Positions 16,410 to 62,359 of a stretch of 64,000 bases of DNA are shown here, piece by piece (position 1 is the stretch's first letter; every line of letters begins with the position of its first letter). Source of the DNA: Escherichia phage Esco_phi_B-01; the sequence record OP292222.1; one strand, written 5' to 3'. The notes below the pieces were generated by a model. It searched no databases. It saw only the letters and a list, made by a program, of their open reading frames with translations, and was not told the origin of the DNA. Made by a program: the position numbers and the translations under genes.

Positions 16410-17582
16410 ATGTCTGATTTAAAATCCCGTTTGATTAAAGCTTCTACTTCTAAAATGACTGCCGACCTGACCAAATCTAAATTGTTTAATGGTCGTGACG
16501 AAGTTCCTACTCGTATTCCTATGCTTAATATTGCATTGGGTGGTGCGTTGAATGCAGGCTTACAATCAGGTTTGACAATCTTTGCTGCACCGTCTAAACA
16601 CTTTAAAACGTTGTTTGGATTAACTATGGTTGCGGCATATATGAAGAAATATCCAGACGCAATTTGCTTGTTCTATGACTCTGAATTCGGTGCTTCAGAA
16701 TCTTATTTCCGTTCAATGGGTGTTGACCTGGAACGTGTGGTTCATACGCCAATCCAGTCAGTCGAACAACTGAAGGTTGACATGACCAACCAATTAGAAG
16801 AAATTACTCGTGGCGAAAAGGTTATTATCTTTATCGACTCCATCGGTAACACTGCTTCTAAGAAAGAAACCGAAGATGCTTTGAACGAGAAAGTTGTAGG
16901 TGATATGACTCGTGCTAAGTCTCTGAAATCTCTGTTCCGTATCGTAACACCTTATCTGACTATCAAGGATATTCCTTGCGTAGCAATTAACCATACGGCT
17001 ATGGAAATTGGTGGAATGTATCCTAAAGAGATTATGGGTGGCGGTACTGGTATTCTGTACTCTGCTTCTACCGTATTCTTTATCTCTAAACGTCAGGTTA
17101 AAGATGGTACCGAGCTCACTGGTTATGACTTCACCCTGAAGGCCGAAAAATCTCGTACTGTTAAAGAGAAATCAACGTTCCCAATTACTGTGAACTTTGA
17201 AGGTGGTATCGACCCATTTAGTGGTCTGCTCGAAATGGCTACTGATATTGGCTTTGTTGTGAAACCTAAAGCTGGTTGGTATAATCGTGCATTCCTTGAC
17301 GAAACCACGGGTGAAATGGTTCAAGAAGAAAAATCATGGCGTGCTAAAGCTACCGATTGTGTCGAGTTCTGGGGACCGCTGTTTAAACATGCTCCATTCC
17401 GTGAAGCAATCGAGAATAAGTATAAGCTCGGTGCAATTAATTCTATTAAAGAAGTCGATGATGCGGTGAACGACCTTATTAACTCTCGTGTCTCTAAGAA
17501 CGTTGCAGTTAAATTGAGTGGCGACACTCAAAGCGCAGCTGATATCGAAAACGATTTAGAAGAGATGGATTTAGATGACTGA
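16410..17582 (+). CDS. uvsX: UvsX recombinase (RecA-like)
   Basis: N-terminus MSDLKSRLIKASTSK identical to T4 UvsX; conserved throughout. Confidence 0.95.
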   Translation: MSDLKSRLIKASTSKMTADLTKSKLFNGRDEVPTRIPMLNIALGGALNAGLQSGLTIFAAPSKHFKTLFGLTMVAAYMKKYPDAICLFYDSEFGASESYFRSMGVDLERVVHTPIQSVEQLKVDMTNQLEEITRGEKVIIFIDSIGNTASKKETEDALNEKVVGDMTRAKSLKSLFRIVTPYLTIKDIPCVAINHTAMEIGGMYPKEIMGGGTGILYSASTVFFISKRQVKDGTELTGYDFTLKAEKSRTVKEKSTFPITVNFEGGIDPFSGLLEMATDIGFVVKPKAGWYNRAFLDETTGEMVQEEKSWRAKATDCVEFWGPLFKHAPFREAIENKYKLGAINSIKEVDDAVNDLINSRVSKNVAVKLSGDTQSAADIENDLEEMDLDD

Positions 17583-17904
17583 TTTATCTGATTTAGATAA
17601 TTTTGTTAAAGATACTGAAGAGGGTCCTAGTGACCCTCGTTATTATGAGAAATCGTTAGATATAATCCGTAAGTCAATGGGTTCTGTTAAGCAGGAAATT
17701 ATGCTTACATTACCTGATGGCACTGCTCACATCGTTTATGTGATGAATATTGTTATTGAGAAAGATGGAAAAGTGTCGGTTGATTTCGGAACGCCTTCCG
17801 AAGACCGAAAAGAAGAGCTAGCGCTTCATGTAGAAAAATGTGTTACAATGCAAATACAAGAAGAACTGGATAAAATTAAATCTAAGAGGTGGTGGAAGTG
17901 GTAG
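17575..17904 (+). CDS. 40: gp40-like protein (name by position between uvsX and 41)
   Basis: 109 aa ORF overlapping both neighbours; positional assignment only. Confidence 0.5.
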   Translation: MTDLSDLDNFVKDTEEGPSDPRYYEKSLDIIRKSMGSVKQEIMLTLPDGTAHIVYVMNIVIEKDGKVSVDFGTPSEDRKEELALHVEKCVTMQIQEELDKIKSKRWWKW

Positions 17905-19328
17905 AAACTATTTTGGCTCAACTGCTAGGCAATAGTGATTATTTCACTAAGGTCTGGCCTTATATGAATGATTCTTATTTTGACCAGGGTCCGGCAAAGA
18001 CCCTTTTCAAAGAAATCAAAAAACATGTCAATGAATATAATGCGGTGCCTTCTAAAAATGCTTTGAGTATTGCATTAGATAACAGCACCCTTTCAGAAGT
18101 TGAACATCAAGGAGCTAAAGAGCTTTTAAATTCTCTGAATGCAGGCCCTGAAGACCAAGAATGGTTGGTTAAAGAGACAGAGAAATATGTTCAGAAGGCA
18201 GCGATGTATAATGCCACTTCAAAAATTATTGAAATTCAAACTAATGCCGACCTTCCGGTTGAGCAACAAAATAGAAAACTCCCAGGTATTGGTGCTATTC
18301 CAGATATCATGCGTGATGCATTATCGATTTGTTTCGATTCTGAATTAGGCCATGACTGGATGGATGACTATGAAGAACGTTTTAAAAGTTATTCTGATAA
18401 AGCACGTAAGGTTCCATTCCGTCTTAATATTCTGAATAAGATTACTAAGGGTGGCGCTGAGTTTGGTACTGAAAACGTATTGTTAGCAGGAACAAACGTA
18501 GGTAAGTCTCTGGGTCTGTGTTCATTGGCTGCTGATTACCTTCAATCCGGTTACGATGTTCTTTATATCTCCATGGAGATGGCAGAGGAAGTATGTGCTA
18601 AGCGTATCGATGCTAACCTTCTAGATGTATCACTGGATGATATTGATGATGGTCACGTCTCATGGCCTGAATATAAAGCCAAGATGGATAAGTGGCGTTC
18701 AACTGCTACTTTAGGTCGTTTAAAGATTAAACAGTATCCTACTGGTGGTGCTAATGCCGATACATTCCGTGCATTATTAAACGAATACAAGCTCAAACAA
18801 AACTTTGTCCCACAGGTCGTTATCGTCGACTACTTGGCCATCTGTGCTTCATCCCGTACGAAAGTTTTCTCTGAAAACAGTTATGGATTGATTAAGATGG
18901 TTGCCGAAGAACTACGTGGACTTGCAGTAGAGAAGAAATTATTGTTGTGGACTGCAGCCCAGACTACTCGTGGCGCGAACGTTGCAGCCGAAATCGATAT
19001 GGCTGATATCGCTGAATCCTTTGGTATTGCACATACTGCAGACTTCATGTTAGGTGTGGTCGAGACAGAAGAGTTTGCTCAGATGGGTATGCAGATGGTT
19101 AAGCAGCTTAAATCCCGTTATGGTGATAAGAGCTACTACAACAAATTTAAGATTGGTGTTAAGAAAGGAAACCAGCGTTGGTATGAAGTTGAAGACGATT
19201 CTAACCCAGGCCCAGTGAACACCGTTCGTGAGGCTACAGGTGAAATGAATCGCCAAGCAGAGGTCAATCGTCAGTCGCGTGTTAATAGAAGCGATTTAGA
19301 CGATTTAGCAGCATCTATCAAATTTTAA
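17889..19328 (+). CDS. 41: gp41 replicative DNA helicase (DnaB-like)
   Basis: GTG start aligning MVEVV.. to T4 MVEII..; Walker A GTNVGKS; C-terminus like T4 gp41. Confidence 0.93.
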   Translation: MVEVVETILAQLLGNSDYFTKVWPYMNDSYFDQGPAKTLFKEIKKHVNEYNAVPSKNALSIALDNSTLSEVEHQGAKELLNSLNAGPEDQEWLVKETEKYVQKAAMYNATSKIIEIQTNADLPVEQQNRKLPGIGAIPDIMRDALSICFDSELGHDWMDDYEERFKSYSDKARKVPFRLNILNKITKGGAEFGTENVLLAGTNVGKSLGLCSLAADYLQSGYDVLYISMEMAEEVCAKRIDANLLDVSLDDIDDGHVSWPEYKAKMDKWRSTATLGRLKIKQYPTGGANADTFRALLNEYKLKQNFVPQVVIVDYLAICASSRTKVFSENSYGLIKMVAEELRGLAVEKKLLLWTAAQTTRGANVAAEIDMADIAESFGIAHTADFMLGVVETEEFAQMGMQMVKQLKSRYGDKSYYNKFKIGVKKGNQRWYEVEDDSNPGPVNTVREATGEMNRQAEVNRQSRVNRSDLDDLAASIKF

Positions 19329-19349
19329 GGAGCTTCGGCTCCTTTTTTG
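19328..19349 (+). terminator. intrinsic terminator (aggagc-ttcg-gctcct + T6)
   Basis: UUCG-loop hairpin plus T run immediately after gene 41. Confidence 0.65.
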
Positions 19350-19357
19350 TTTTAAGG

Positions 19358-19386
19358 GTTTACTTCTCCTGTAGGCATGATACTAT
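19358..19386 (+). promoter_or_regulatory. T4-type early promoter (GTTTAC - 17 - TGaTACTAT)
   Basis: consensus -35/-10 and conserved leader atagacctgtcaactaatggag. Confidence 0.65.
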
Positions 19387-19412
19387 AGACCTGTCAACTA
19401 ATGGAGAACAAA

Positions 19413-19730
19413 ATGAAAACCATCGACTGTAAAGCGGAATATAAAGTGTATTACCATGGAAGTTGTAGTGTTGCTAATATTGGTAATATGCTTTGTCCTC
19501 CTGAGGAAACAGGAGTTCTGTCTGAAACTGGTCGTAAGAAAAACCTGAACCGTGTGTTCTTTACTGAAGATATTGGTTTGGCTAAGATTTATGCTGGCCG
19601 AGCTGCTCGTTCGGTGGGAGGAGAACCTCGTCTTTATCGTGTAATTGCTCCGGTAGATGTGGTTTGTTTAAATGATACCAAAGGCGCTACGGTTTATCAC
19701 GCTGAATGGGCCTTCTGTGAGGAAATCTAA
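19413..19730 (+). CDS. hypothetical protein (105 aa) with HGS...Y...E spacing
   Basis: ORF track; start moved to the ATG that follows RBS ggaga. Confidence 0.5.
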   Translation: MKTIDCKAEYKVYYHGSCSVANIGNMLCPPEETGVLSETGRKKNLNRVFFTEDIGLAKIYAGRAARSVGGEPRLYRVIAPVDVVCLNDTKGATVYHAEWAFCEEI

Positions 19731-19934
19731 ATGTTTAAATTAGAAATCGTAGTGTTTATTGGTTGGTTTGAAAATGGTAATATGTTTACCAAAGAAACTG
19801 CGCTGGATGTTAGTGACCAAAAAATGATTGAATGGGTTACAGTGCAGTATGCAGAAGTGAATAATGCACTGGTGAAAGCCTTTGTTAATGACAATAAAGT
19901 TTTTGAATATGATGCCCGCATTGAGGAAATCTAA
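19731..19934 (+). CDS. dmd: Dmd-like antitoxin (inhibitor of RnlA/LsoA toxins)
   Basis: VVFIGWFENGNMFTKE...QYAEVNNALVKAF matches remembered T4 Dmd (VVFMGWFKNESMFTKE...QYAEVNKALVKAF). Confidence 0.6.
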   Translation: MFKLEIVVFIGWFENGNMFTKETALDVSDQKMIEWVTVQYAEVNNALVKAFVNDNKVFEYDARIEEI

Positions 19935-20075
19935 ATGGAAGAGGTTGAATGTGTAGTATGTGGTTGTTCGGTATGTGAAGACCAGGCGGTATTTGATGCT
20001 TGGGACAACGCAACTTGTTTAGACTGCGATAGCGAATACGAAGAAATTGCTCATAAACATGAAGACGAGGAATAA
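19935..20075 (+). CDS. small Cys-rich zinc-ribbon protein (46 aa)
   Basis: CVVCGCSVC...CLDC four-Cys pattern; RBS gaggaaa; acidic tail. Confidence 0.4.
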   Translation: MEEVECVVCGCSVCEDQAVFDAWDNATCLDCDSEYEEIAHKHEDEE

Positions 20076-20315
20076 ATGAATATTGTATTAATGAAGCCGA
20101 CCTCTAGCTCTTTTTGGAATAAATCTTTTGGTAAGCATAATATGTTTATCCAACGCACCGTAAGCAGCTGGGAACTAGTTCTTTCAGTCGGTCACAACGA
20201 TTATGAACAAGAATACGTAGAGTTCTTCGAATTTCCTGTGAAGCCTACTAAGCGTCAGATTCGTCAGACCAAACATAAATTCCGTAAAATTTATTTGGAA
20301 GATTCATTAAAATAA
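20076..20315 (+). CDS. hypothetical protein (79 aa)
   Basis: ORF track; directly follows the upstream stop. Confidence 0.5.
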   Translation: MNIVLMKPTSSSFWNKSFGKHNMFIQRTVSSWELVLSVGHNDYEQEYVEFFEFPVKPTKRQIRQTKHKFRKIYLEDSLK

Positions 20316-20316
20316 A

Positions 20317-20346
20317 GTTTACAACGGTCTATGGTAGTGATACTAT
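20317..20346 (+). promoter_or_regulatory. T4-type early promoter (GTTTAC - 18 - TGaTACTAT)
   Basis: consensus plus conserved leader atagacctatcaactaatgaggag. Confidence 0.65.
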
Positions 20347-20374
20347 AGACCTATCAACTAATGAGGAGTTAAAA

Positions 20375-20668
20375 ATGAAAAAGTTATTAATCGCAGCAAT
20401 CCTTACAGTAGCATCATGTGGTACAGCTCCAGTTACGGCTGGATTGGATAAAGACCTTTGTGAATGGTCTATGACCGCAGACCAAGAATCAGTTGAACAT
20501 CAGATTTACGCTGATATCATGAATATCACTAAACGTGACCGTCCTGATATGGTTAAAGAAGTATCTGACCAATTGGCTTCTAGCGGTGTTATGCAGTATA
20601 ACTATGTTCTGTACTGTGATGCTAATTTCGATAACAAAAATATTGTTAAAGAGGTGATAGGTGAATAA
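20375..20668 (+). CDS. sp: Spackle-like periplasmic protein (Sp)
   Basis: 97 aa with signal peptide; DKDLCEWSMTADQ...VMQYNYVLYCD resembles remembered T4 Sp. Confidence 0.5.
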   Translation: MKKLLIAAILTVASCGTAPVTAGLDKDLCEWSMTADQESVEHQIYADIMNITKRDRPDMVKEVSDQLASSGVMQYNYVLYCDANFDNKNIVKEVIGE

Positions 20669-21101
20669 GATTAACAGAAATTTGGTTATCAAAAAGCTCC
20701 GTTGCAAAAATCCAAATGCACAAGCATACAGGATGTTTTGGAGCGACGACCACCAGTACCTGGGTTATTTTCTTGTTGATAGTGATGATAGAATTACAAT
20801 GGCCCATAAACTTCTTAACAGAGAATTAAACCATTGGCAAGAACTTATTGCGGTAAGGTCTAAATTATTTTCATGTAATGCAATGCATCAATTGGTTTAT
20901 TTTTTCGCTGAAGGTATTCCTGACAAGGTTGAGTTTGATGGATTCGAATTTAAAGATATCCACCCGGACAACGAATTGAACGACCGCGTTAATATGGATA
21001 TCCCTAGCAAGTATATCAAAAACAGTCTGTTGAAAATTCTGGAAGCTCCGGTTTATTCAATTGACGACCAGATTTTTAATGCCTTTATGAACCGAGGTTA
21101 A
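20661..21101 (+). CDS. hypothetical protein (146 aa)
   Basis: ORF track; GTG start preceded by aaagagg. Confidence 0.5.
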   Translation: MNKINRNLVIKKLRCKNPNAQAYRMFWSDDHQYLGYFLVDSDDRITMAHKLLNRELNHWQELIAVRSKLFSCNAMHQLVYFFAEGIPDKVEFDGFEFKDIHPDNELNDRVNMDIPSKYIKNSLLKILEAPVYSIDDQIFNAFMNRG

Positions 21102-21102
21102 T

Positions 21103-21294
21103 ATGACTGCAATGTGTACGGGCTCTAAGATTTCTGTATTCGAACTGTTCGAAGAATATGAAATCGTATCAAAAGACCAAGAAGCTATCCATATTATTGC
21201 CGGTGATGGCGTAACTTGGATTATCCCACTTTACCACGAAGATACATATGAAGTCACTGATGCAAATGGTGATAAAGCTATTTTCGTAATATAA
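21103..21294 (+). CDS. hypothetical protein (63 aa)
   Basis: ORF track; start 2 nt after upstream stop. Confidence 0.45.
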   Translation: MTAMCTGSKISVFELFEEYEIVSKDQEAIHIIAGDGVTWIIPLYHEDTYEVTDANGDKAIFVI

Positions 21295-21297
21295 ATA
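21290..21297 (+). promoter_or_regulatory. T4 late promoter box TATAAATA
   Basis: exact TATAAATA 14 nt upstream of the ATG at 21311. Confidence 0.45.
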
Positions 21298-21310
21298 AGG
21301 CCAGGAGCCT

Positions 21311-21472
21311 ATGAAATCTTTTAAAGAAGTTATGAACGAAGATATGGTCGCAGGCGATGCTGGTGGAAATCCATCTAATATTGCCTCCGGAACTACCTCA
21401 GGCGCAGTCGTCAACAAAGGGCCTGAACAAATCCCATCTAAAAAGCGTAAAGAAAAATCCGAAAACGAATGA
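21311..21472 (+). CDS. small Gly/Ser-rich protein (53 aa) with basic tail
   Basis: RBS aggag; preceded by a late-promoter box. Confidence 0.4.
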   Translation: MKSFKEVMNEDMVAGDAGGNPSNIASGTTSGAVVNKGPEQIPSKKRKEKSENE

Positions 21473-21510: not shown

Positions 21511-22539
21511 ATGTCATATGTCGATAGAGAATTTGCTGTACGTGCCTTGAATTACCAACCTAAATTCAGACAAGTAACTGGTAGTGATTTTAAATTAAAC
21601 TGTCGTTGTCGTGTATGCGGCGACTCCCAAAAGGATGAGAACAAAGCTCGATTCTGGGCCTATCCAGCCAATGACGGCTCTGTAATGCTACACTGTTTTA
21701 ACTGTGATTATTCGGCAGGAATTAAGAAGTACCTATACGAATATGAGCCTGATTTATATCGCGAATATATTCTTGAGAAACATAAAGAGCAATCGTTCGG
21801 GAGACAAGCTGCGCCTAAGGTGGAGATATCTGAAAAAATTAAAGCTAAGATGCCTGTCATTGAAAAGCTTAATTTCTGTGAACGATTAGATAGAATGCCG
21901 AAAGACCATCCTATTATTAAGTATGTAACTCTGCGGTGCATTCCTGAAAATAAATGGAATCGGTTATGGTTTACTAAAGAATGGCCTGCATTGGTGAATT
22001 CTGTTAATCCAGGGACATATTCCAAAGAAATGCCTGAACCACGTTTGGTTATTCCAATTTTCAATAAGAATAAACAAATTGAAAGTTTTCAGGGCCGAGC
22101 CTTACGTAAAGATGCTCCACAAAAATATATTACAATAAAAGCTCATGACCAAGCTACAAAAATATATGGAATGGATACAGTTGACGAACGTCAATTGGTG
22201 TGGGTAATGGAAGGTCCTATTGATTCATTATTCGTACCTAATGCAATAGCAATTACTGGTGGGTCGTTGGACTTGGCTATGGTTCCATGTAAAGAAACTC
22301 GTGCCTGGGTAATGGACAATGAACCCCGTCATCCTGACACAATTAAGCGTATGCAACGATTAGTTGATGCCGGCGAAAGGGTCCTATTCTGGGACAAGGC
22401 CCCATGGCCTTCTAAAGATATAAATGATATGGTTATGAAAGATAAAGCTGATATAAATGATGTATTGGCATATATGAAAGCTAATATAGCCCAAGGGTTA
22501 ATGGCAAAAATGAGGCTTTCAAAATATTCTAAAATTTAG
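21511..22539 (+). CDS. 61: gp61 DNA primase
   Basis: 342 aa; zinc-ribbon CRCRVCGD...CFNC; C-terminus NIAQGLMAKMRLSKYSKI matches T4 gp61. Confidence 0.92.
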   Translation: MSYVDREFAVRALNYQPKFRQVTGSDFKLNCRCRVCGDSQKDENKARFWAYPANDGSVMLHCFNCDYSAGIKKYLYEYEPDLYREYILEKHKEQSFGRQAAPKVEISEKIKAKMPVIEKLNFCERLDRMPKDHPIIKYVTLRCIPENKWNRLWFTKEWPALVNSVNPGTYSKEMPEPRLVIPIFNKNKQIESFQGRALRKDAPQKYITIKAHDQATKIYGMDTVDERQLVWVMEGPIDSLFVPNAIAITGGSLDLAMVPCKETRAWVMDNEPRHPDTIKRMQRLVDAGERVLFWDKAPWPSKDINDMVMKDKADINDVLAYMKANIAQGLMAKMRLSKYSKI

Positions 22540-40785: not shown

Positions 40786-40896
40786 ATGAAAAACTTACTT
40801 AAAGCAATTTGGAACATGTTTGTGTTATTGGTTGTATTGAGCATTTTCCCAATAGTTTTTATGATTGACCACGTACGTGTATTCTTTAACTTCTGA
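40786..40896 (+). CDS. small membrane peptide (36 aa)
   Basis: RBS ggaga 5 nt before ATG; hydrophobic core. Confidence 0.35.
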   Translation: MKNLLKAIWNMFVLLVVLSIFPIVFMIDHVRVFFNF

Positions 40897-40906
40897 GGAA
40901 AATATT

Positions 40907-41053
40907 ATGGGTAATCGAATTTATAAAGTAAAGCTGCACGGTAAAGTGATTACTACCGTTAGCTTTAATTTTTATATCAGCGCTGACTGCGCCCGCGATA
41001 TCCTCATCGAGGAAGGATATAGCGAATACATCCAAATTGAAGAAGTTCTTTAA
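40907..41053 (+). CDS. small hypothetical protein (48 aa)
   Basis: RBS tgaggaaaatatt before ATG. Confidence 0.4.
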   Translation: MGNRIYKVKLHGKVITTVSFNFYISADCARDILIEEGYSEYIQIEEVL

Positions 41054-41069
41054 TTCTGAGGAAAATATT

Positions 41070-41294
41070 ATGAAACTTTTTAAAGATATCGCAGTTGGTG
41101 AAAAATTTGTCTTAGGTAATGGTCAACAATTGATTCGTATTTCTCCTTTAATGGATAATAGCGAGCGGCCTATTCGTACTGAAAACTGTTTGGATTATCC
41201 TTTTTATCAAAAGCGTTTTGCTATTGAAAATAATACCGAGTGTTTCACGGTTGATGAACTGATGGAATTATCAGAAGAAGTCGACTCTGAATAA
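41070..41294 (+). CDS. hypothetical protein (74 aa)
   Basis: RBS tgaggaaaatatt before ATG. Confidence 0.45.
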   Translation: MKLFKDIAVGEKFVLGNGQQLIRISPLMDNSERPIRTENCLDYPFYQKRFAIENNTECFTVDELMELSEEVDSE

Positions 41295-41730: not shown

Positions 41731-42180
41731 ATGAATACTTATATGACTCGCGGTAACGTTCTGTCTGCTGGTGCTACTACTGTTGCTTATGTTAAGAATG
41801 GCGAATACCAAAATGGTAAGCCTTCTAAAGAAATCTCAGCTCAGCCAGGCTTCTACTTCTTTGTTAAAGGTGAAGCAGATTCTCGTGTCGTAGCCGCTCG
41901 CTTTTATGTCGGTAACCAACGTTCAGCTCAAGGTCTTGATGGTATTGTGGCTAACATCCGTAAGAAACGTTCTCAATCAGCTCGCACTATGGCAGTGAAT
42001 GGTGTGGTGTATGAAGTTCTTTATGTGCCAGCTTCTAAAATGAAACCTCTGACTACAGGCTTTGGTAAAGGTCAAATTGCAATGGTTTTCACTCGCAATC
42101 ATAGTTCAGACCTTCAGACACTGGAAGAAATGAACCGTATGTTGGCCGATAACTTCAAATTCGTTCTGCAGGCTTACTAA
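41731..42180 (+). CDS. ndd: Ndd nucleoid disruption protein
   Basis: C-terminal half [16 protein letters not shown]...FTRNH...[21 protein letters not shown] essentially identical to T4 Ndd. Confidence 0.8.
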
Positions 42181-42260
42181 TGAGTAATTTCCATAACGAA
42201 CATGTGATGCAATGGCACCGTCATAATCTGAAATTAACCGGTGTCTTCGGACGCCCTTGA
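42180..42260 (+). CDS. stp: Stp-like 26-aa peptide (T4 Stp modulates the host EcoprrI restriction / PrrC anticodon nuclease system)
   Basis: [26 protein letters not shown] versus remembered T4 Stp [26 protein letters not shown]; ATG shares the A of the ndd stop. Confidence 0.6.
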
Positions 42261-42267
42261 GGAAAAT

Positions 42268-42417
42268 ATGAATATTTTACAAGGTTTTGCTGCGGGTATT
42301 TGGACTTATCTAGGTATTTGGACTATTACGACGGGTGAAACTTCGGTCATTTCTCAGGCCATTCCACAATTCATATTGGCATTTGTTCTGATTCTACAGG
42401 CCTTTACCAAAAAATGA
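42268..42417 (+). CDS. small membrane protein (49 aa), cassette copy A
   Basis: RBS tgaggaaaat; hydrophobic. Confidence 0.4.
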   Translation: MNILQGFAAGIWTYLGIWTITTGETSVISQAIPQFILAFVLILQAFTKK

Positions 42418-42477
42418 TTAAGAAATCTTGGGTTACTCGGTAGCCCTTTCTTCTTTATTGGTAACACTGTATTACGG

Positions 42478-42552
42478 AGTAATTCCCATAACGAACATGT
42501 GATGCAGTTCTATCGTAACAATCTTAAAACTAAAGGCGTCTTCGGACGCTAA
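42478..42552 (+). pseudogene. stp paralog remnant lacking the initiator ATG (encodes ...[24 protein letters not shown])
   Basis: second repeat copy; start codon replaced, internal GTG/ATG at 42499/42502 would give only a 16-17 aa product. Confidence 0.4.
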
Positions 42553-42562
42553 TGAGGAAAAT

Positions 42563-42724
42563 ATGATTATCATAGTTTTTATTGAACTTATTACGGCTAT
42601 AGTCTGTTCGGTTTGCTTCTTTTTAGGTGTGTGGACCCCTGGTCCGGTATTCTTAAGTTTTCTGTTTATTGGCTGGGTTCTTTCTACTTTTGTCGGTTTA
42701 CTTAAGATGATTAAAAATGATTAA
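42563..42724 (+). CDS. small membrane protein (53 aa), cassette copy B, unrelated to the copy A ORF
   Basis: RBS tgaggaaaat; two hydrophobic segments. Confidence 0.4.
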   Translation: MIIIVFIELITAIVCSVCFFLGVWTPGPVFLSFLFIGWVLSTFVGLLKMIKND

Positions 42725-42857
42725 GAAAATCTTGGGCTACTCGGTAGCCCTTGCTGCTTTATTGGTAGCACTGTATTATGGAGTAATATTCGGTCTTATC
42801 CAAGTTGTGCTTTTTATTTCCGATGTTATTATGGTTATTCATTCACTAGTATGGTAA
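42717..42857 (+). CDS. small membrane peptide (46 aa); its copy-A counterpart at 42414-42443 is frameshifted
   Basis: intact only in copy B (aagaaaatc vs aagaaatc). Confidence 0.35.
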   Translation: MIKKILGYSVALAALLVALYYGVIFGLIQVVLFISDVIMVIHSLVW

Positions 42858-42861
42858 AATT

Positions 42862-44241
42862 ATGGCTGATGTAATTGATACCCTTTTTAAACAATCCTTA
42901 GATGTTTACGATGATGCTTTTACTCGTCGTGACTTAAAAAGCATTATCGACAATGAAGCGCTGGCTTACGCAATGTATACTGTCGAAAACCGCGCCATTC
43001 CAAATATGATTGATGGCTTTAAACCCGTACAACGTTTTGTAGTTGCTCGTTGTCTTGATATGGCTCGTGGTAATAAAGAAAAATTCCACAAATTAGCTTC
43101 TATTGCAGGTGGTGTAGCCGACCTTGGATATCACCATGGTGAAGGCTCTGCTCAAGAAGCAGGTGCTCTGATGGCTAACACTTGGAACAACAACTTCCCA
43201 CTGTTGGATGGCCAGGGTAACTTTGGTTCTCGATTGGTTCAAAAAGCAGCGGCATCTCGTTATATTTTTGCACGTATTGGAACTAATTTCGCAAAGGTTT
43301 ATAAGGATACAGAATATGCTCCGGTTCATGCGGATGTCGAACATAAGCCACCAGCTTTTTATCTGCCTATTATTCCTACTGTTCTTCTTAATGGTATTTC
43401 CGGTATTGCAACTGGTTATGCAACTAATATTCTTCCTCATAGTTTTGATTCTGTTAAGAAAGCTGTATTGCAGGTTCTTCAAGAAAAACGCGTAACCAAG
43501 CCTAAGGTGGCTTATCCGGAATTCCGTGGTGATGTGGTTGAGATTGAACCAGGTAGTTATGAACTACGAGGCACGTATAAGTTCACATCTCGAACCCAAA
43601 TGCATATCACAGAAATCCCGTACAAATACGACCGTGAAACGTATGTGGCCAAGGTATTAGACCCTCTAGAAGACAAAGGGTATATCACATATGATGACGA
43701 TTGTGACGAGAATGGTTTCGGCTTCAAGGTTAAGATTCGTAAAGAATATGAATTGCCTACTGAAGAAAATAAGAAGCACGAAAAAATCATGAAGGACTTT
43801 GGGTTAATCGAACGCCGTTCACAAAACCTGACTGTCATTAATGAGAAAGGTAAACTTAAGGTTTACGAAGATGCAGTTGAACTGATTCGTGATTTCGTTG
43901 AGGTCCGTAAGACCTTTGTACAAAAACGTATTGATGGTAAAATCATCGAAACCGAAGAAGCTTTCAAACTGGCATTGGCTAAAGCCACCTTTATCAAAGA
44001 TGTTATTGATGGAATTGTGGTTATCCAAGGTAAGACTCGTAAGGTTTTAACCGAAGAATTGGCTGGTAATAAAGTCTACGGCGAATATGCCGATAAACTC
44101 GTAGCAATGAATATTTTCCATATCACTTCCGATGAAGCTAAGAAACTGGCTTTGGAAGCCAAGGCTAAGAAAGAAGAGCACCAATACTGGAAAACCACTG
44201 ATGTTGTAACTGAGTATGTTAAAGATTTGGAGGCTCTATGA
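42862..44241 (+). CDS. 52: gp52 DNA topoisomerase II medium subunit (GyrA-like)
   Basis: 459 aa; RAIPNMIDGFKPVQR motif typical of the GyrA/ParC N-terminus. Confidence 0.92.
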   Translation: MADVIDTLFKQSLDVYDDAFTRRDLKSIIDNEALAYAMYTVENRAIPNMIDGFKPVQRFVVARCLDMARGNKEKFHKLASIAGGVADLGYHHGEGSAQEAGALMANTWNNNFPLLDGQGNFGSRLVQKAAASRYIFARIGTNFAKVYKDTEYAPVHADVEHKPPAFYLPIIPTVLLNGISGIATGYATNILPHSFDSVKKAVLQVLQEKRVTKPKVAYPEFRGDVVEIEPGSYELRGTYKFTSRTQMHITEIPYKYDRETYVAKVLDPLEDKGYITYDDDCDENGFGFKVKIRKEYELPTEENKKHEKIMKDFGLIERRSQNLTVINEKGKLKVYEDAVELIRDFVEVRKTFVQKRIDGKIIETEEAFKLALAKATFIKDVIDGIVVIQGKTRKVLTEELAGNKVYGEYADKLVAMNIFHITSDEAKKLALEAKAKKEEHQYWKTTDVVTEYVKDLEAL

Positions 44242-44365: not shown

Positions 44366-44383
44366 GGTTTAGTGCAAAAAAGT

Positions 44384-44412
44384 GTTTACATCTGCTTTAA
44401 ACATGATACTAT
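44384..44412 (+). promoter_or_regulatory. T4-type early promoter (GTTTAC - 17 - TGaTACTAT)
   Basis: consensus; the spacer also contains TGCTTTA. Confidence 0.6.
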
Positions 44413-44460
44413 AGACCTATCAAATAAATGAACTGAAACAAACAACCCGGAGATACAAAA

Positions 44461-44699: not shown

Positions 44700-44719
44700 G
44701 AGCTCTTGAAAAAGAGCTC
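44700..44719 (+). other. stable hairpin gagctctt-gaaa-aagagctc (GNRA loop) without T run
   Basis: 8-bp perfect stem directly after the upstream stop. Confidence 0.4.
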
Positions 44720-44727
44720 AAAATAAA

Positions 44728-44756
44728 GTTTACTTCTGCTTTAAACATGATACTAT
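44728..44756 (+). promoter_or_regulatory. T4-type early promoter (GTTTAC - 17 - TGaTACTAT) upstream of motA
   Basis: consensus plus conserved leader. Confidence 0.65.
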
Positions 44757-44790
44757 AGACCTATCAAATAAATGGTTATCGGAGATTAAA

Positions 44791-61213: not shown

Positions 61214-61223
61214 GCATTTAATG

Positions 61224-61252
61224 GTTTACAATGCCTTTAAACATGATACTAT
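61224..61252 (+). promoter_or_regulatory. T4-type early promoter (GTTTAC - 17 - TGaTACTAT)
   Basis: consensus plus conserved leader. Confidence 0.65.
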
Positions 61253-61281
61253 AGACCTATCAACTACATGAGGAAATAAAA

Positions 61282-62035: not shown

Positions 62036-62296
62036 ATGACTAAAGATGATTTCCTGGATGCAGTAGAAAAAGCCAGTGAGAAATTTGAAGTGATGGCTGT
62101 TCGAGTTCACAAAGACCGAAATTACGGCCTCGATATCCAAACGTATTCGTTATGGCTTGTAGGTGAACATAGCCTTGTAACCACTTTAGTTATGGGTGTT
62201 GATGCTCAACCTTTACTGGTTAAATTTAGAAGTATGGAAAAAGCCACCAAGGAAATGATTAAACTTGGTAAATGGCTTGATAAAATTCAAAAATAA
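62036..62296 (+). CDS. hypothetical protein (86 aa)
   Basis: first ATG 2 nt after upstream stop. Confidence 0.45.
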   Translation: MTKDDFLDAVEKASEKFEVMAVRVHKDRNYGLDIQTYSLWLVGEHSLVTTLVMGVDAQPLLVKFRSMEKATKEMIKLGKWLDKIQK

Positions 62297-62298
62297 AT

Positions 62299-62327
62299 GT
62301 TTACAAGGTCTATAGGCATGATACTAT
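62299..62327 (+). promoter_or_regulatory. T4-type early promoter (GTTTAC - 17 - TGaTACTAT)
   Basis: consensus; flanking inverted repeat ggtctatag / ctatagacc. Confidence 0.65.
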
Positions 62328-62359
62328 AGACCTATCAACTAACGAGTGAGGAAAATAAA

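Follow-up and report, generated by a model that had tools for sequence, protein, structure and literature searches.

The present analysis concerns a stretch of 64,000 nucleotides (nt) from Escherichia phage Esco_phi_B-01 (sequence record OP292222.1; hereafter the window, to which all coordinates refer unless a contig is named), in which a small gene of the Dmd antitoxin family, dmd, lies exactly between two copies of a 16-bp direct repeat, here called the linker or R. On the evidence of related phages, in which the same site is found empty, singly occupied or doubly occupied, it is probable, at roughly two chances in three (0.68), that the linker itself is a substrate of recombination, and that crossovers at its copies add, remove or swap exactly one gene between intact, coupled neighbours. 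The window represents a Dhakavirus, that is, a JS10/JS98-like T-even phage, and is 98.2% identical to JS10 over positions 19300-20400.

The two copies of the linker

A direct pattern search of the window located the 16-mer TGAGGAAATCTAAATG in two exact copies on the + strand, at the positions given for them in a preliminary description of this DNA; the period of the repeat, 204 nt, is the length of the open reading frame (ORF) 19731-19934. Each copy reads (T)GAG GAA ATC TAA ATG, encoding Glu-Glu-Ile-stop with the next ATG abutting, and across relatives R takes the form (T/C)GAGGAAATCTAAATG. Reading of the ORFs likewise bears out that the repeats combine an EEI-stop tail, a ribosome-binding site (RBS) and the following ATG, with the Dmd ORF exactly between them:

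19718-19733, + strand: repeat copy 1 (R1), made up of the last base of a Cys codon, Glu-Glu-Ile-stop of the upstream gene 'up', the Shine-Dalgarno sequence GAGG, and the ATG of dmd
19922-19937, + strand: repeat copy 2 (R2), made up of the last base of an Ile codon, Glu-Glu-Ile-stop of Dmd, the Shine-Dalgarno sequence, and the ATG of a gene of 46 amino acids (aa)

Apart from these copies, the window has one near match to TGAGGAAATCTAAATG, which lies at 61269 and differs in 2 bases; when up to 2 mismatches are allowed, shuffled sequences give 0.14 matches, and none of 100 shuffles reached 3. The looser pattern GAGGAAANNTAAATG matches twice, both times at the repeat copies (0.01 expected), while exact 16-mer direct pairs no more than 500 nt apart are expected 0.007 times per window, as estimated by 300 first-order Markov simulations. 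General repeat scans, run over the whole window and over 19600-20100, missed the pair, and the result is based on the direct pattern search together with a k-mer scan. The RNA at both copies is unstructured, folding no better than shuffles (z 0.96 for R1 and 0.06 for R2), and a functional RNA structure at the repeats was rejected on these values; a promoter scan found no promoter-like site at either copy.

Part of the linker is common property of the phage; the general RBS form in the window is GAGGAAA with an ATG 2-8 nt behind it, present at 20 sites on the + strand and 0 on the - strand. The spacer TCTAA (Ile codon and stop) and the T preceding the motif were found at no junction except this pair. 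Since GAGGAAA...ATG is a phage-wide RBS form, the specificity of the repeat is limited to the TCTAA spacer and the preceding T.

Occupancy of the site in related phages

In the relatives the site is flanked on the left by 'up' and, in states A, B, C and 0 below, on the right by the 46-aa gene; its content differs. With dmd67 denoting the 67-aa type of the window and dmd64 a second, 64-aa type, the following states were recognised:

State A, up-R-dmd67-R-46aa: the window, JS98, VR5 and IME281 (junctions read directly); by alignment span only, JS10, dhaeg, dhabil, CLB_P2, MN04, CUA3, AnYang, C6, NC-G and others
State B, up-R-dmd64-R-dmd67-R-46aa, with three repeat copies: fDHCT2, 04086 and ABTNLsp5
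Variant of state B: KIT01, with the same tandem, one mismatch in the middle copy (TAAGG...) and the third copy absent
State C, up-R-dmd64-R-46aa: QL01, IME341 and vB_EcoM_005 (junctions read directly); by protein search, WG01, IME08, Bp7, PSD9, IME540, FB, LQ5, PSD2002, ABTNLS3 and SHP1
State 0, up-R-46aa, with a single R and both flanks conserved: Kanagawavirus CIP9 and contigs L022, L023 and L046 (read directly); by full-length single-piece alignment, Kosakonia phage 305, IME523, Entb_45 and MY742

The number of linker copies is therefore one at empty sites, two at single-dmd sites and three at tandem sites, and the same repeats come with a polymorphic cassette, all four states being represented among natural phages. 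The type dmd64 is confined to Dhakavirus, the census comprising 23 records that correspond to 4 tandem and 13 single-copy phages; among five records with two Dmd matches, the 4 characterised two-copy phages all have the order dmd64-dmd67. The empty-site phages, which belong to Kanagawavirus, infect Enterobacter and Kosakonia, and the contrast with the Escherichia phages, among which no empty site was found, fits with, but does not prove, a selective value of dmd on E. coli hosts. A pattern scan of IMG/VR yielded no loci beyond those already known, while a metagenome scan added two, the empty site of L046 and a Dmd variant in L045.

The preliminary description proposed that the interval between the repeats be compared for presence or absence in relatives; in this comparison, relatives were found to differ by exactly one cassette, cut at the repeat. 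Three pairs of phages, with flank identities measured over 400 nt per side, are collinear except for one large indel:

KIT01 and LHE83: 2102 nt collinear, 95.1% identical; one 195-bp indel (dmd64); flanks 96.2% and 96.2%
fDHCT2 and the window: 2294 nt, 94.3%; one 195-bp indel (dmd64); flanks 96.5% and 94.2%
04086 and QL01: 2288 nt, 93.7%; one 204-bp indel (dmd67); flanks 90.8% and 94.0%

All three large indels are bounded by R, one copy of which remains; each pair has, in addition, 1-2 further gaps of 1-3 nt. The dmd67 alleles that stand beside dmd64 resemble those of different single-copy phages, being 99% identical to IME281 and 98.5% to the window in fDHCT2, 99% to LHE83 in KIT01, and 97% to VR5 in ABTNLsp5; these alleles stem from different lineages, and several independent events are therefore indicated. 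The same follows from 'up', which is 98.7% identical among 04086 (state B), QL01 (state C) and LHE83 (dmd67 only): the state of the cassette is independent of similarity in 'up', so that several independent gains, losses or swaps are needed.

Mosaicism is visible at the same boundaries. In DK-13, a Gaprivervirus, 'up' is 81% and dmd67 95-97.5% identical to the Dhakavirus genes, the step falling at R, a pattern that apparently reflects transfer across genera at the level of the cassette. Compared with IME281, the window is 99.5% identical in dmd, 84% in the 46-aa gene and 69.5% in the following gene, 61.4; in the comparison with UP19, the 46-aa gene is 100% and 61.4 is 66% identical, and in the mismatch maps the steps in identity fall at the junctions.

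Other contents of the site were also encountered. In contig L018 the cargo directly after up-R is a third Dmd type. In the metagenome contig OBRI01000039.1 (L045, 168-383) the Dmd variant directly after up-R starts with MEEF, the four residues that also open the 46-aa gene, in nearly the same DNA, which suggests a crossover a few bases past the linker. A close relative of L018, the IMG/VR contig L019 (2791-3370), carries directly after up-R a 188-aa gene with a signal-peptide-like N-terminus; no dmd was found in the stretch of L019 examined, and the replaced block begins at the linker and reaches as far as the promoter that precedes the spackle gene, sp. Outside Dhakavirus, in L015 (3041-3382) and L018 (3007-3339), dmd is followed by a protein of 110-113 aa whose middle resembles the C-terminal half of Dmd; in Pfam, the Dmd family is matched by the L015 copy only below the cutoff, at 19 bits, and by the L018 copy not at all, and the protein may be a diverged and extended paralogue of Dmd.

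The dmd67 of KIT01 ends in ...SNEK-stop and is followed by the promoter and sp. The same arrangement is seen in LHE83; the two phages (L031 1180-1250 for LHE83, L029 1380-1440 for KIT01) have neither the 46-aa gene nor 61.4, and their dmd67, with the terminal sequence ...CDYRSNEK-stop, runs right up to the promoter of sp. This tail, taken with the AGTTTACA that follows it, resembles the way 61.4 finishes in the window (...DSLK-stop AGTTTACA; 20290-20330), which hints at a deletion fusing the dmd core to the end of 61.4.

Identity of Dmd and origin of its tail

The description of ORF 19731-19934 as Dmd-like is borne out by matches to a protein family, to a group of phage orthologues and to the sequences of solved structures. 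The 67-aa ORF scores 72 bits against Pfam PF17587 (Dmd; cutoff 27, E 5e-20, model positions 4-59 of 60), matches PHROG 2102 with E 5e-32, and in the PDB matches 5i8j_A (E 2.1e-21) and 5hy3_B ('Antitoxin Dmd', 60 aa, the length of T4 Dmd; E 1.4e-16); it is about 58% identical to the T4-type Dmd by tblastn, and the records of JS10 and JS98 annotate it as dmd. An alignment of 9 variants of Dmd has 19 invariant columns. The product of dmd64 also belongs to the family (58-61 bits in Pfam); the two types share 55% protein identity and about 67-71% nucleotide identity. In T4, where the function is established, Dmd inhibits RnlA and LsoA and is needed for growth on hosts that carry rnlAB or lsoAB (PMC9391042, PMC8266594), and the protein described here would, by homology, be expected to block toxins of the RnlA/LsoA type, which are HEPN RNases.

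The end of the protein bears on the history of the linker. The Dmd core ends in D-x-R in T4 (...VDCRG), in the phiE142 type (...EADFR) and in PDB entries 5i8j and 5hy3, and the tails past this motif change with the downstream junction (IEEI, SEETK, SNEK, HIHLSEEI); in the window, tail residues 64-67 (IEEI) extend past the ends of 5i8j, 5hy3 and T4 Dmd. The IEEI tail is derived from the linker. The EEI end of 'up', on the other side, is retained at the empty site of Kanagawavirus, and more distant homologues of 'up' in genomes without dmd end in FCEEIK, FCEEIV or FCEEV. The linker is native to the 3' end of 'up', and on the simplest reading the copy that closes dmd would be a duplicate of the junction between 'up' and the 46-aa gene.

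Proposed mechanism and alternative explanations

Gain, loss and exchange of the cassette would proceed by a crossover or template switch between two copies of the linker, within one genome or between co-infecting phages, the underlying process being short-homology recombination or template switching during replication or co-infection. Recombination of R with R would be expected to give an empty junction (...TTCTGTGAGGAAATCTAAATGGAAGAGG...), a junction of dmd with dmd, or a circle of 204 bp; the genes on either side would keep an intact end, Shine-Dalgarno sequence, start, frame and coupling, and the products would therefore be viable. Natural products of such events would be the tandem of both dmd types with three linkers, either type alone, and the site with no dmd and one linker.

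Several points weigh against this proposal. The evidence is comparative, and recombination is inferred rather than directly observed; of the earlier claim that dmd is a cassette gained or lost through short homology, the linker-bounded indels and the empty site stand as findings, and the recombination itself has the status just given. Ten of the 15 core bases of the repeat (GAGGAAA and ATG) belong to the generic RBS consensus of the phage, and small genes of the neighbourhood likewise have an acidic EE or EEE tail ahead of the stop, so part of the identity of the repeats could be convergent, and identity alone, because of these 10 generic bases, is a less good proof of common descent. The two dmd types are only about 67-71% identical in nucleotides, and the tandem is therefore old or of two-lineage origin and no fresh duplication; on the dmd64 side the tandem phages may even share one origin, their dmd64 genes forming a clade of their own. 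No empty site was found within Escherichia phages, neither a homotypic 67-67 tandem nor the reversed order 67-64 was seen among the tandem genomes examined, and dmd was never found outside this syntenic locus. The last point, together with the lack of a recombinase and of terminal inverted repeats, makes the term 'mobile module', used in the preliminary description, too strong.

One alternative is that the linker is passive: its copies would be alike through shared selection for an RBS, an abutting stop-ATG and an acidic tail, the variation of dmd would stem from an ancient tandem duplication and from homologous recombination in the long flanking genes, and the 16-mer would mark boundaries rather than the site of crossover. 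The 20 coding-strand sites of the RBS form and the acidic ends of the neighbouring small genes fit this explanation, as does the dmd/61.4 junction of T4, which is built on this principle from other letters (CGAGGATAATATG); moreover, a swap between dmd64 and dmd67 in single-copy phages needs homology in 'up' and the 46-aa gene only. Shared selection does not readily account, however, for two unrelated genes, 'up' and dmd, having all 16 bases in common, including the TCTAA spacer, nor for the fact that other Dmd lineages lack the IEEI tail. The one-cassette indels between tandem and single-copy phages are impossible by flank homology alone, exactly one linker being left each time, and the single copy with both flanks conserved at the Kanagawavirus empty site, as well as the sharp shifts of identity at the linkers, also speak against a passive role, which we consider unlikely on balance.

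Under active insertion with duplication of the target site, the 16-bp repeats would be the duplicated target, and the agent a transposase, a homing endonuclease or a site-specific recombinase of integron-like type. A single copy where the site is empty, and a pair flanking dmd where it is filled, match the pattern of such an insertion. The 204-bp unit, however, encodes Dmd alone; its ends have no terminal inverted repeats or attC-like structure and its junctions are unstructured; no recombinase or endonuclease gene is present in the operon, and family searches revealed no recombinase family among the neighbours. To our knowledge, a 16-bp target duplication that also supplies a coding tail, Shine-Dalgarno sequence, stop and ATG would be atypical of known elements. 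A transposon or integron-type element is accordingly disfavoured, and we regard this origin as very improbable. Even less credence can be given to a chance repeat or an artefact of assembly, in favour of which only the short length of the repeat can be adduced; with 0.007 local 16-mer pairs expected per window and the same junctions recurring in dozens of genomes sequenced independently in different laboratories and countries, it was rejected.

Organization of the operon and neighbouring genes

The region around dmd, from uvsX to the primase gene, is organised as follows:

16410-17582, + strand: uvsX (ORF length, sequence, T4 synteny)
17575-17904, + strand: gene 40 (T4 synteny)
17889-19328, + strand: gene 41 (relatives annotate a gp41 helicase)
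19327-19344, + strand: terminator-like hairpin and T-run after gene 41 (7-bp stem, 4 GC pairs, TTTTTGTTTTA tail)
19349-19404, + strand: early-promoter-like 56-nt repeat heading the four-gene operon, one of six copies in the window
19401-19730, + strand: 'up', 109 aa, function unknown (PHROG 2110; in relatives annotated with 105 aa, the start being the ATG at 19413)
19731-19934, + strand: dmd, 67-aa type, the unit between the repeats (Pfam PF17587, PHROG 2102 and PDB matches)
19935-20075, + strand: 46-aa Cys-rich gene with CxxC...CxxC (PHROG 13952), partner of 'up' at empty sites
20067-20078, + strand: third, related linker GAGGAATAAATG (Glu-Glu-stop-ATG, without the Ile codon), between the 46-aa gene and 61.4
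20076-20315, + strand: gp61.4/TifA homologue, 79 aa, last gene of the operon (DUF7279, PF23945, 66 bits; 44% identity to T4 gp61.4, E 1e-15)
20309-20364, + strand: PeSL-like element closing the operon and heading sp (early promoter TTTACA-17-TACTAT, stem-loop over the -10 box)
20375-20668, + strand: spackle, sp (Pfam T4_Spackle)
20661-21472, + strand: three small ORFs
21511-22539, + strand: gene 61, primase (T4 synteny)

The genes up, dmd, 46aa and 61.4 are contiguous without gaps and are joined by three successive junctions of one linker design, GAGGAAATCTAAATG twice and then GAGGAATAAATG, in which the Glu-Glu-(Ile)-stop codons of the upstream gene (GAG GAA A..) constitute the Shine-Dalgarno sequence of the next gene and the ATG abuts the stop; the first of these junctions is encoded by the C-terminus of 'up', ...EWAFCEEI-stop. 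The four-gene operon is translationally coupled. As to the structure of its two ends, the fold of 19330-19410 is indistinguishable from shuffles (z -0.55), and the stem-loop of the element at 20309-20364 has z -2.64, 1 of 200 shuffles folding equally well. An antisense ORF at 19727-19921 was considered as a gene and rejected, being without support.

The 56-nt early-promoter-like repeat (GTTTAC ... GATACTATAGACCTATCAACTAA) occurs in six copies, at 19349-19404, 20309-20364, 44375-44430, 44719-44774, 61215-61270 and 62290-62345, the first two of which bracket the entire up-dmd-46aa-61.4 operon. The protein encoded by 'up' is conserved in several T-even genera, with the motifs YHGS and FFTEDIGLAKIYAGRA; it gave no sequence match in Pfam, NCBIfam or the PDB, and NCBIfam returned zero matches for the six proteins tested. 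In the GenBank record of HX01, the name 'ADP-ribosyl transferase', a label that is unconfirmed, appears with a match that takes in Dmd as well. Downstream of sp, the C-terminus of a 146-aa ORF (20661-21101) resembles the Pfam family AdfA (anti-DarT factor A) below threshold (E 0.0067, 16 bits, cutoff 27), and its C-terminal motif DDQIFNAFMNRG is common to variable neighbours in related phages.

Further repeats are found around small genes elsewhere in the window. A gene of about 48 aa (ATG at 40907, stop at 41053) lies between 19-nt exact RBS repeats TTCTGAGGAAAATATTATG, 163 nt apart, in the repeat regions 40886-40909 and 41049-41072, an arrangement like that around dmd. Tandem repeats of about 300 bp, 78-92% identical, extend over 42175-42787, just upstream of a 459-aa ORF at 42862, and cover the small hydrophobic ORFs 42241-42417, 42563-42724 and 42717-42857; these look like locally duplicated genes for small membrane proteins.

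Comparison with known systems

The closest counterpart is dmd of T4 (gene 61.5), which belongs to the same family and occupies the same neighbourhood as the gene described here, with gene 41 on its upstream side and 61.4/tifA, sp and gene 61 on its downstream side. The T4 order is uvsX, 40, 41, dmd, 61.4, sp, 61.2, 61.1, 61, and the preliminary description was wrong in placing the T4 gene after gene 61. In T4, an early promoter is followed directly by dmd, which has no flanking repeat and is joined to 61.4 by the junction CGAGGATAATATG quoted above; in the window, by contrast, it is the second gene of the operon, behind 'up', which T4 lacks, an extra 46-aa gene follows it, and its product has a four-residue tail encoded by the linker. 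A second Dmd type, 55% identical in protein, moreover coexists with the first in the genus Dhakavirus.

In T4-type phages, PeSL repeats mediate indels and mini-circles (PMC2839356), and modular shuffling by PeSLs has been described (Arbiol et al. 2010, PMC2839356; Comeau et al. 2014, PMC4122927). The resemblance to the present case lies in the small accessory genes of a hyperplastic region placed between regulatory repeats, in the repeat-bounded indels and in the single copy at the empty site; indeed, the element at 20309-20364, a promoter with its -10 box in a stem-loop, has itself the PeSL design (PMC2839356). The dmd repeat differs in being of 15-16 bp, without promoter or stem-loop, partly coding, situated inside an operon and of single-gene resolution.

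A second precedent is provided by experimentally evolved T4, which amplifies dmd-tifA by recombination at microhomologies of 6-10 bp, a length that is thus enough in a T-even phage (Srikant, Guegler and Laub 2022, PMC9391042). The locus is the same, as is the proposed mechanism (short direct repeats), and in both cases one repeat is kept between units; the T4 amplifications, however, arose under laboratory selection from unique chance microhomologies and are homotypic tandems, whereas here a conserved and functional 16-bp linker is associated with natural cassettes and with divergent paralogues in tandem (71% in nucleotides, 55% in amino acids). Integron cassettes, in turn, offer an analogy only: in both, promoterless single-gene units are arrayed behind a common promoter with a repeated boundary. 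Unlike integrons, the dmd site lacks an integrase, attC and attI sequences and any structured site of recombination, and exchange would rely on general recombination or replication functions.

Biological significance

The gene dmd was already known and annotated, and its behaviour as a cassette, which comparative data support, fits the known plasticity of T-even genomes; what is new is that the boundary of shuffling is a linker of coding tail and RBS inside an operon, rather than a promoter-terminator cassette. In the literature searched on Dhakavirus or JS98 with dmd, no description was found of two Dmd types or of this polymorphism. The concepts of PeSL shuffling and of microhomology amplification are extended by this case, and neither is overturned.

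The gene 41-61 region of T-even phages has been proposed to be an anti-toxin island, with dmd directed against RnlA/LsoA, tifA against ToxN and adfA against DarT (PMC9391042). It might be supposed, as a rather doubtful generalisation, that the linker is maintained as a 'universal joint' of a recombinase-free cassette array of anti-defence genes downstream of gene 41, holding small Cys-rich proteins alongside variants of Dmd and of TifA; the two Dmd types would then neutralise different RnlA/LsoA-like HEPN toxins, and their copy number and type would set the host range. Apart from this generalisation, the natural isolates show one anti-defence gene added, removed or swapped with the expression of its neighbours apparently undisturbed, at a boundary of 16 bp that serves as coding tail, RBS, stop and start together. 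The locus thus offers a concrete and testable case in which the counter-defence repertoire of a phage would be tuned gene by gene, and two divergent Dmd types whose toxin specificities can be directly compared.

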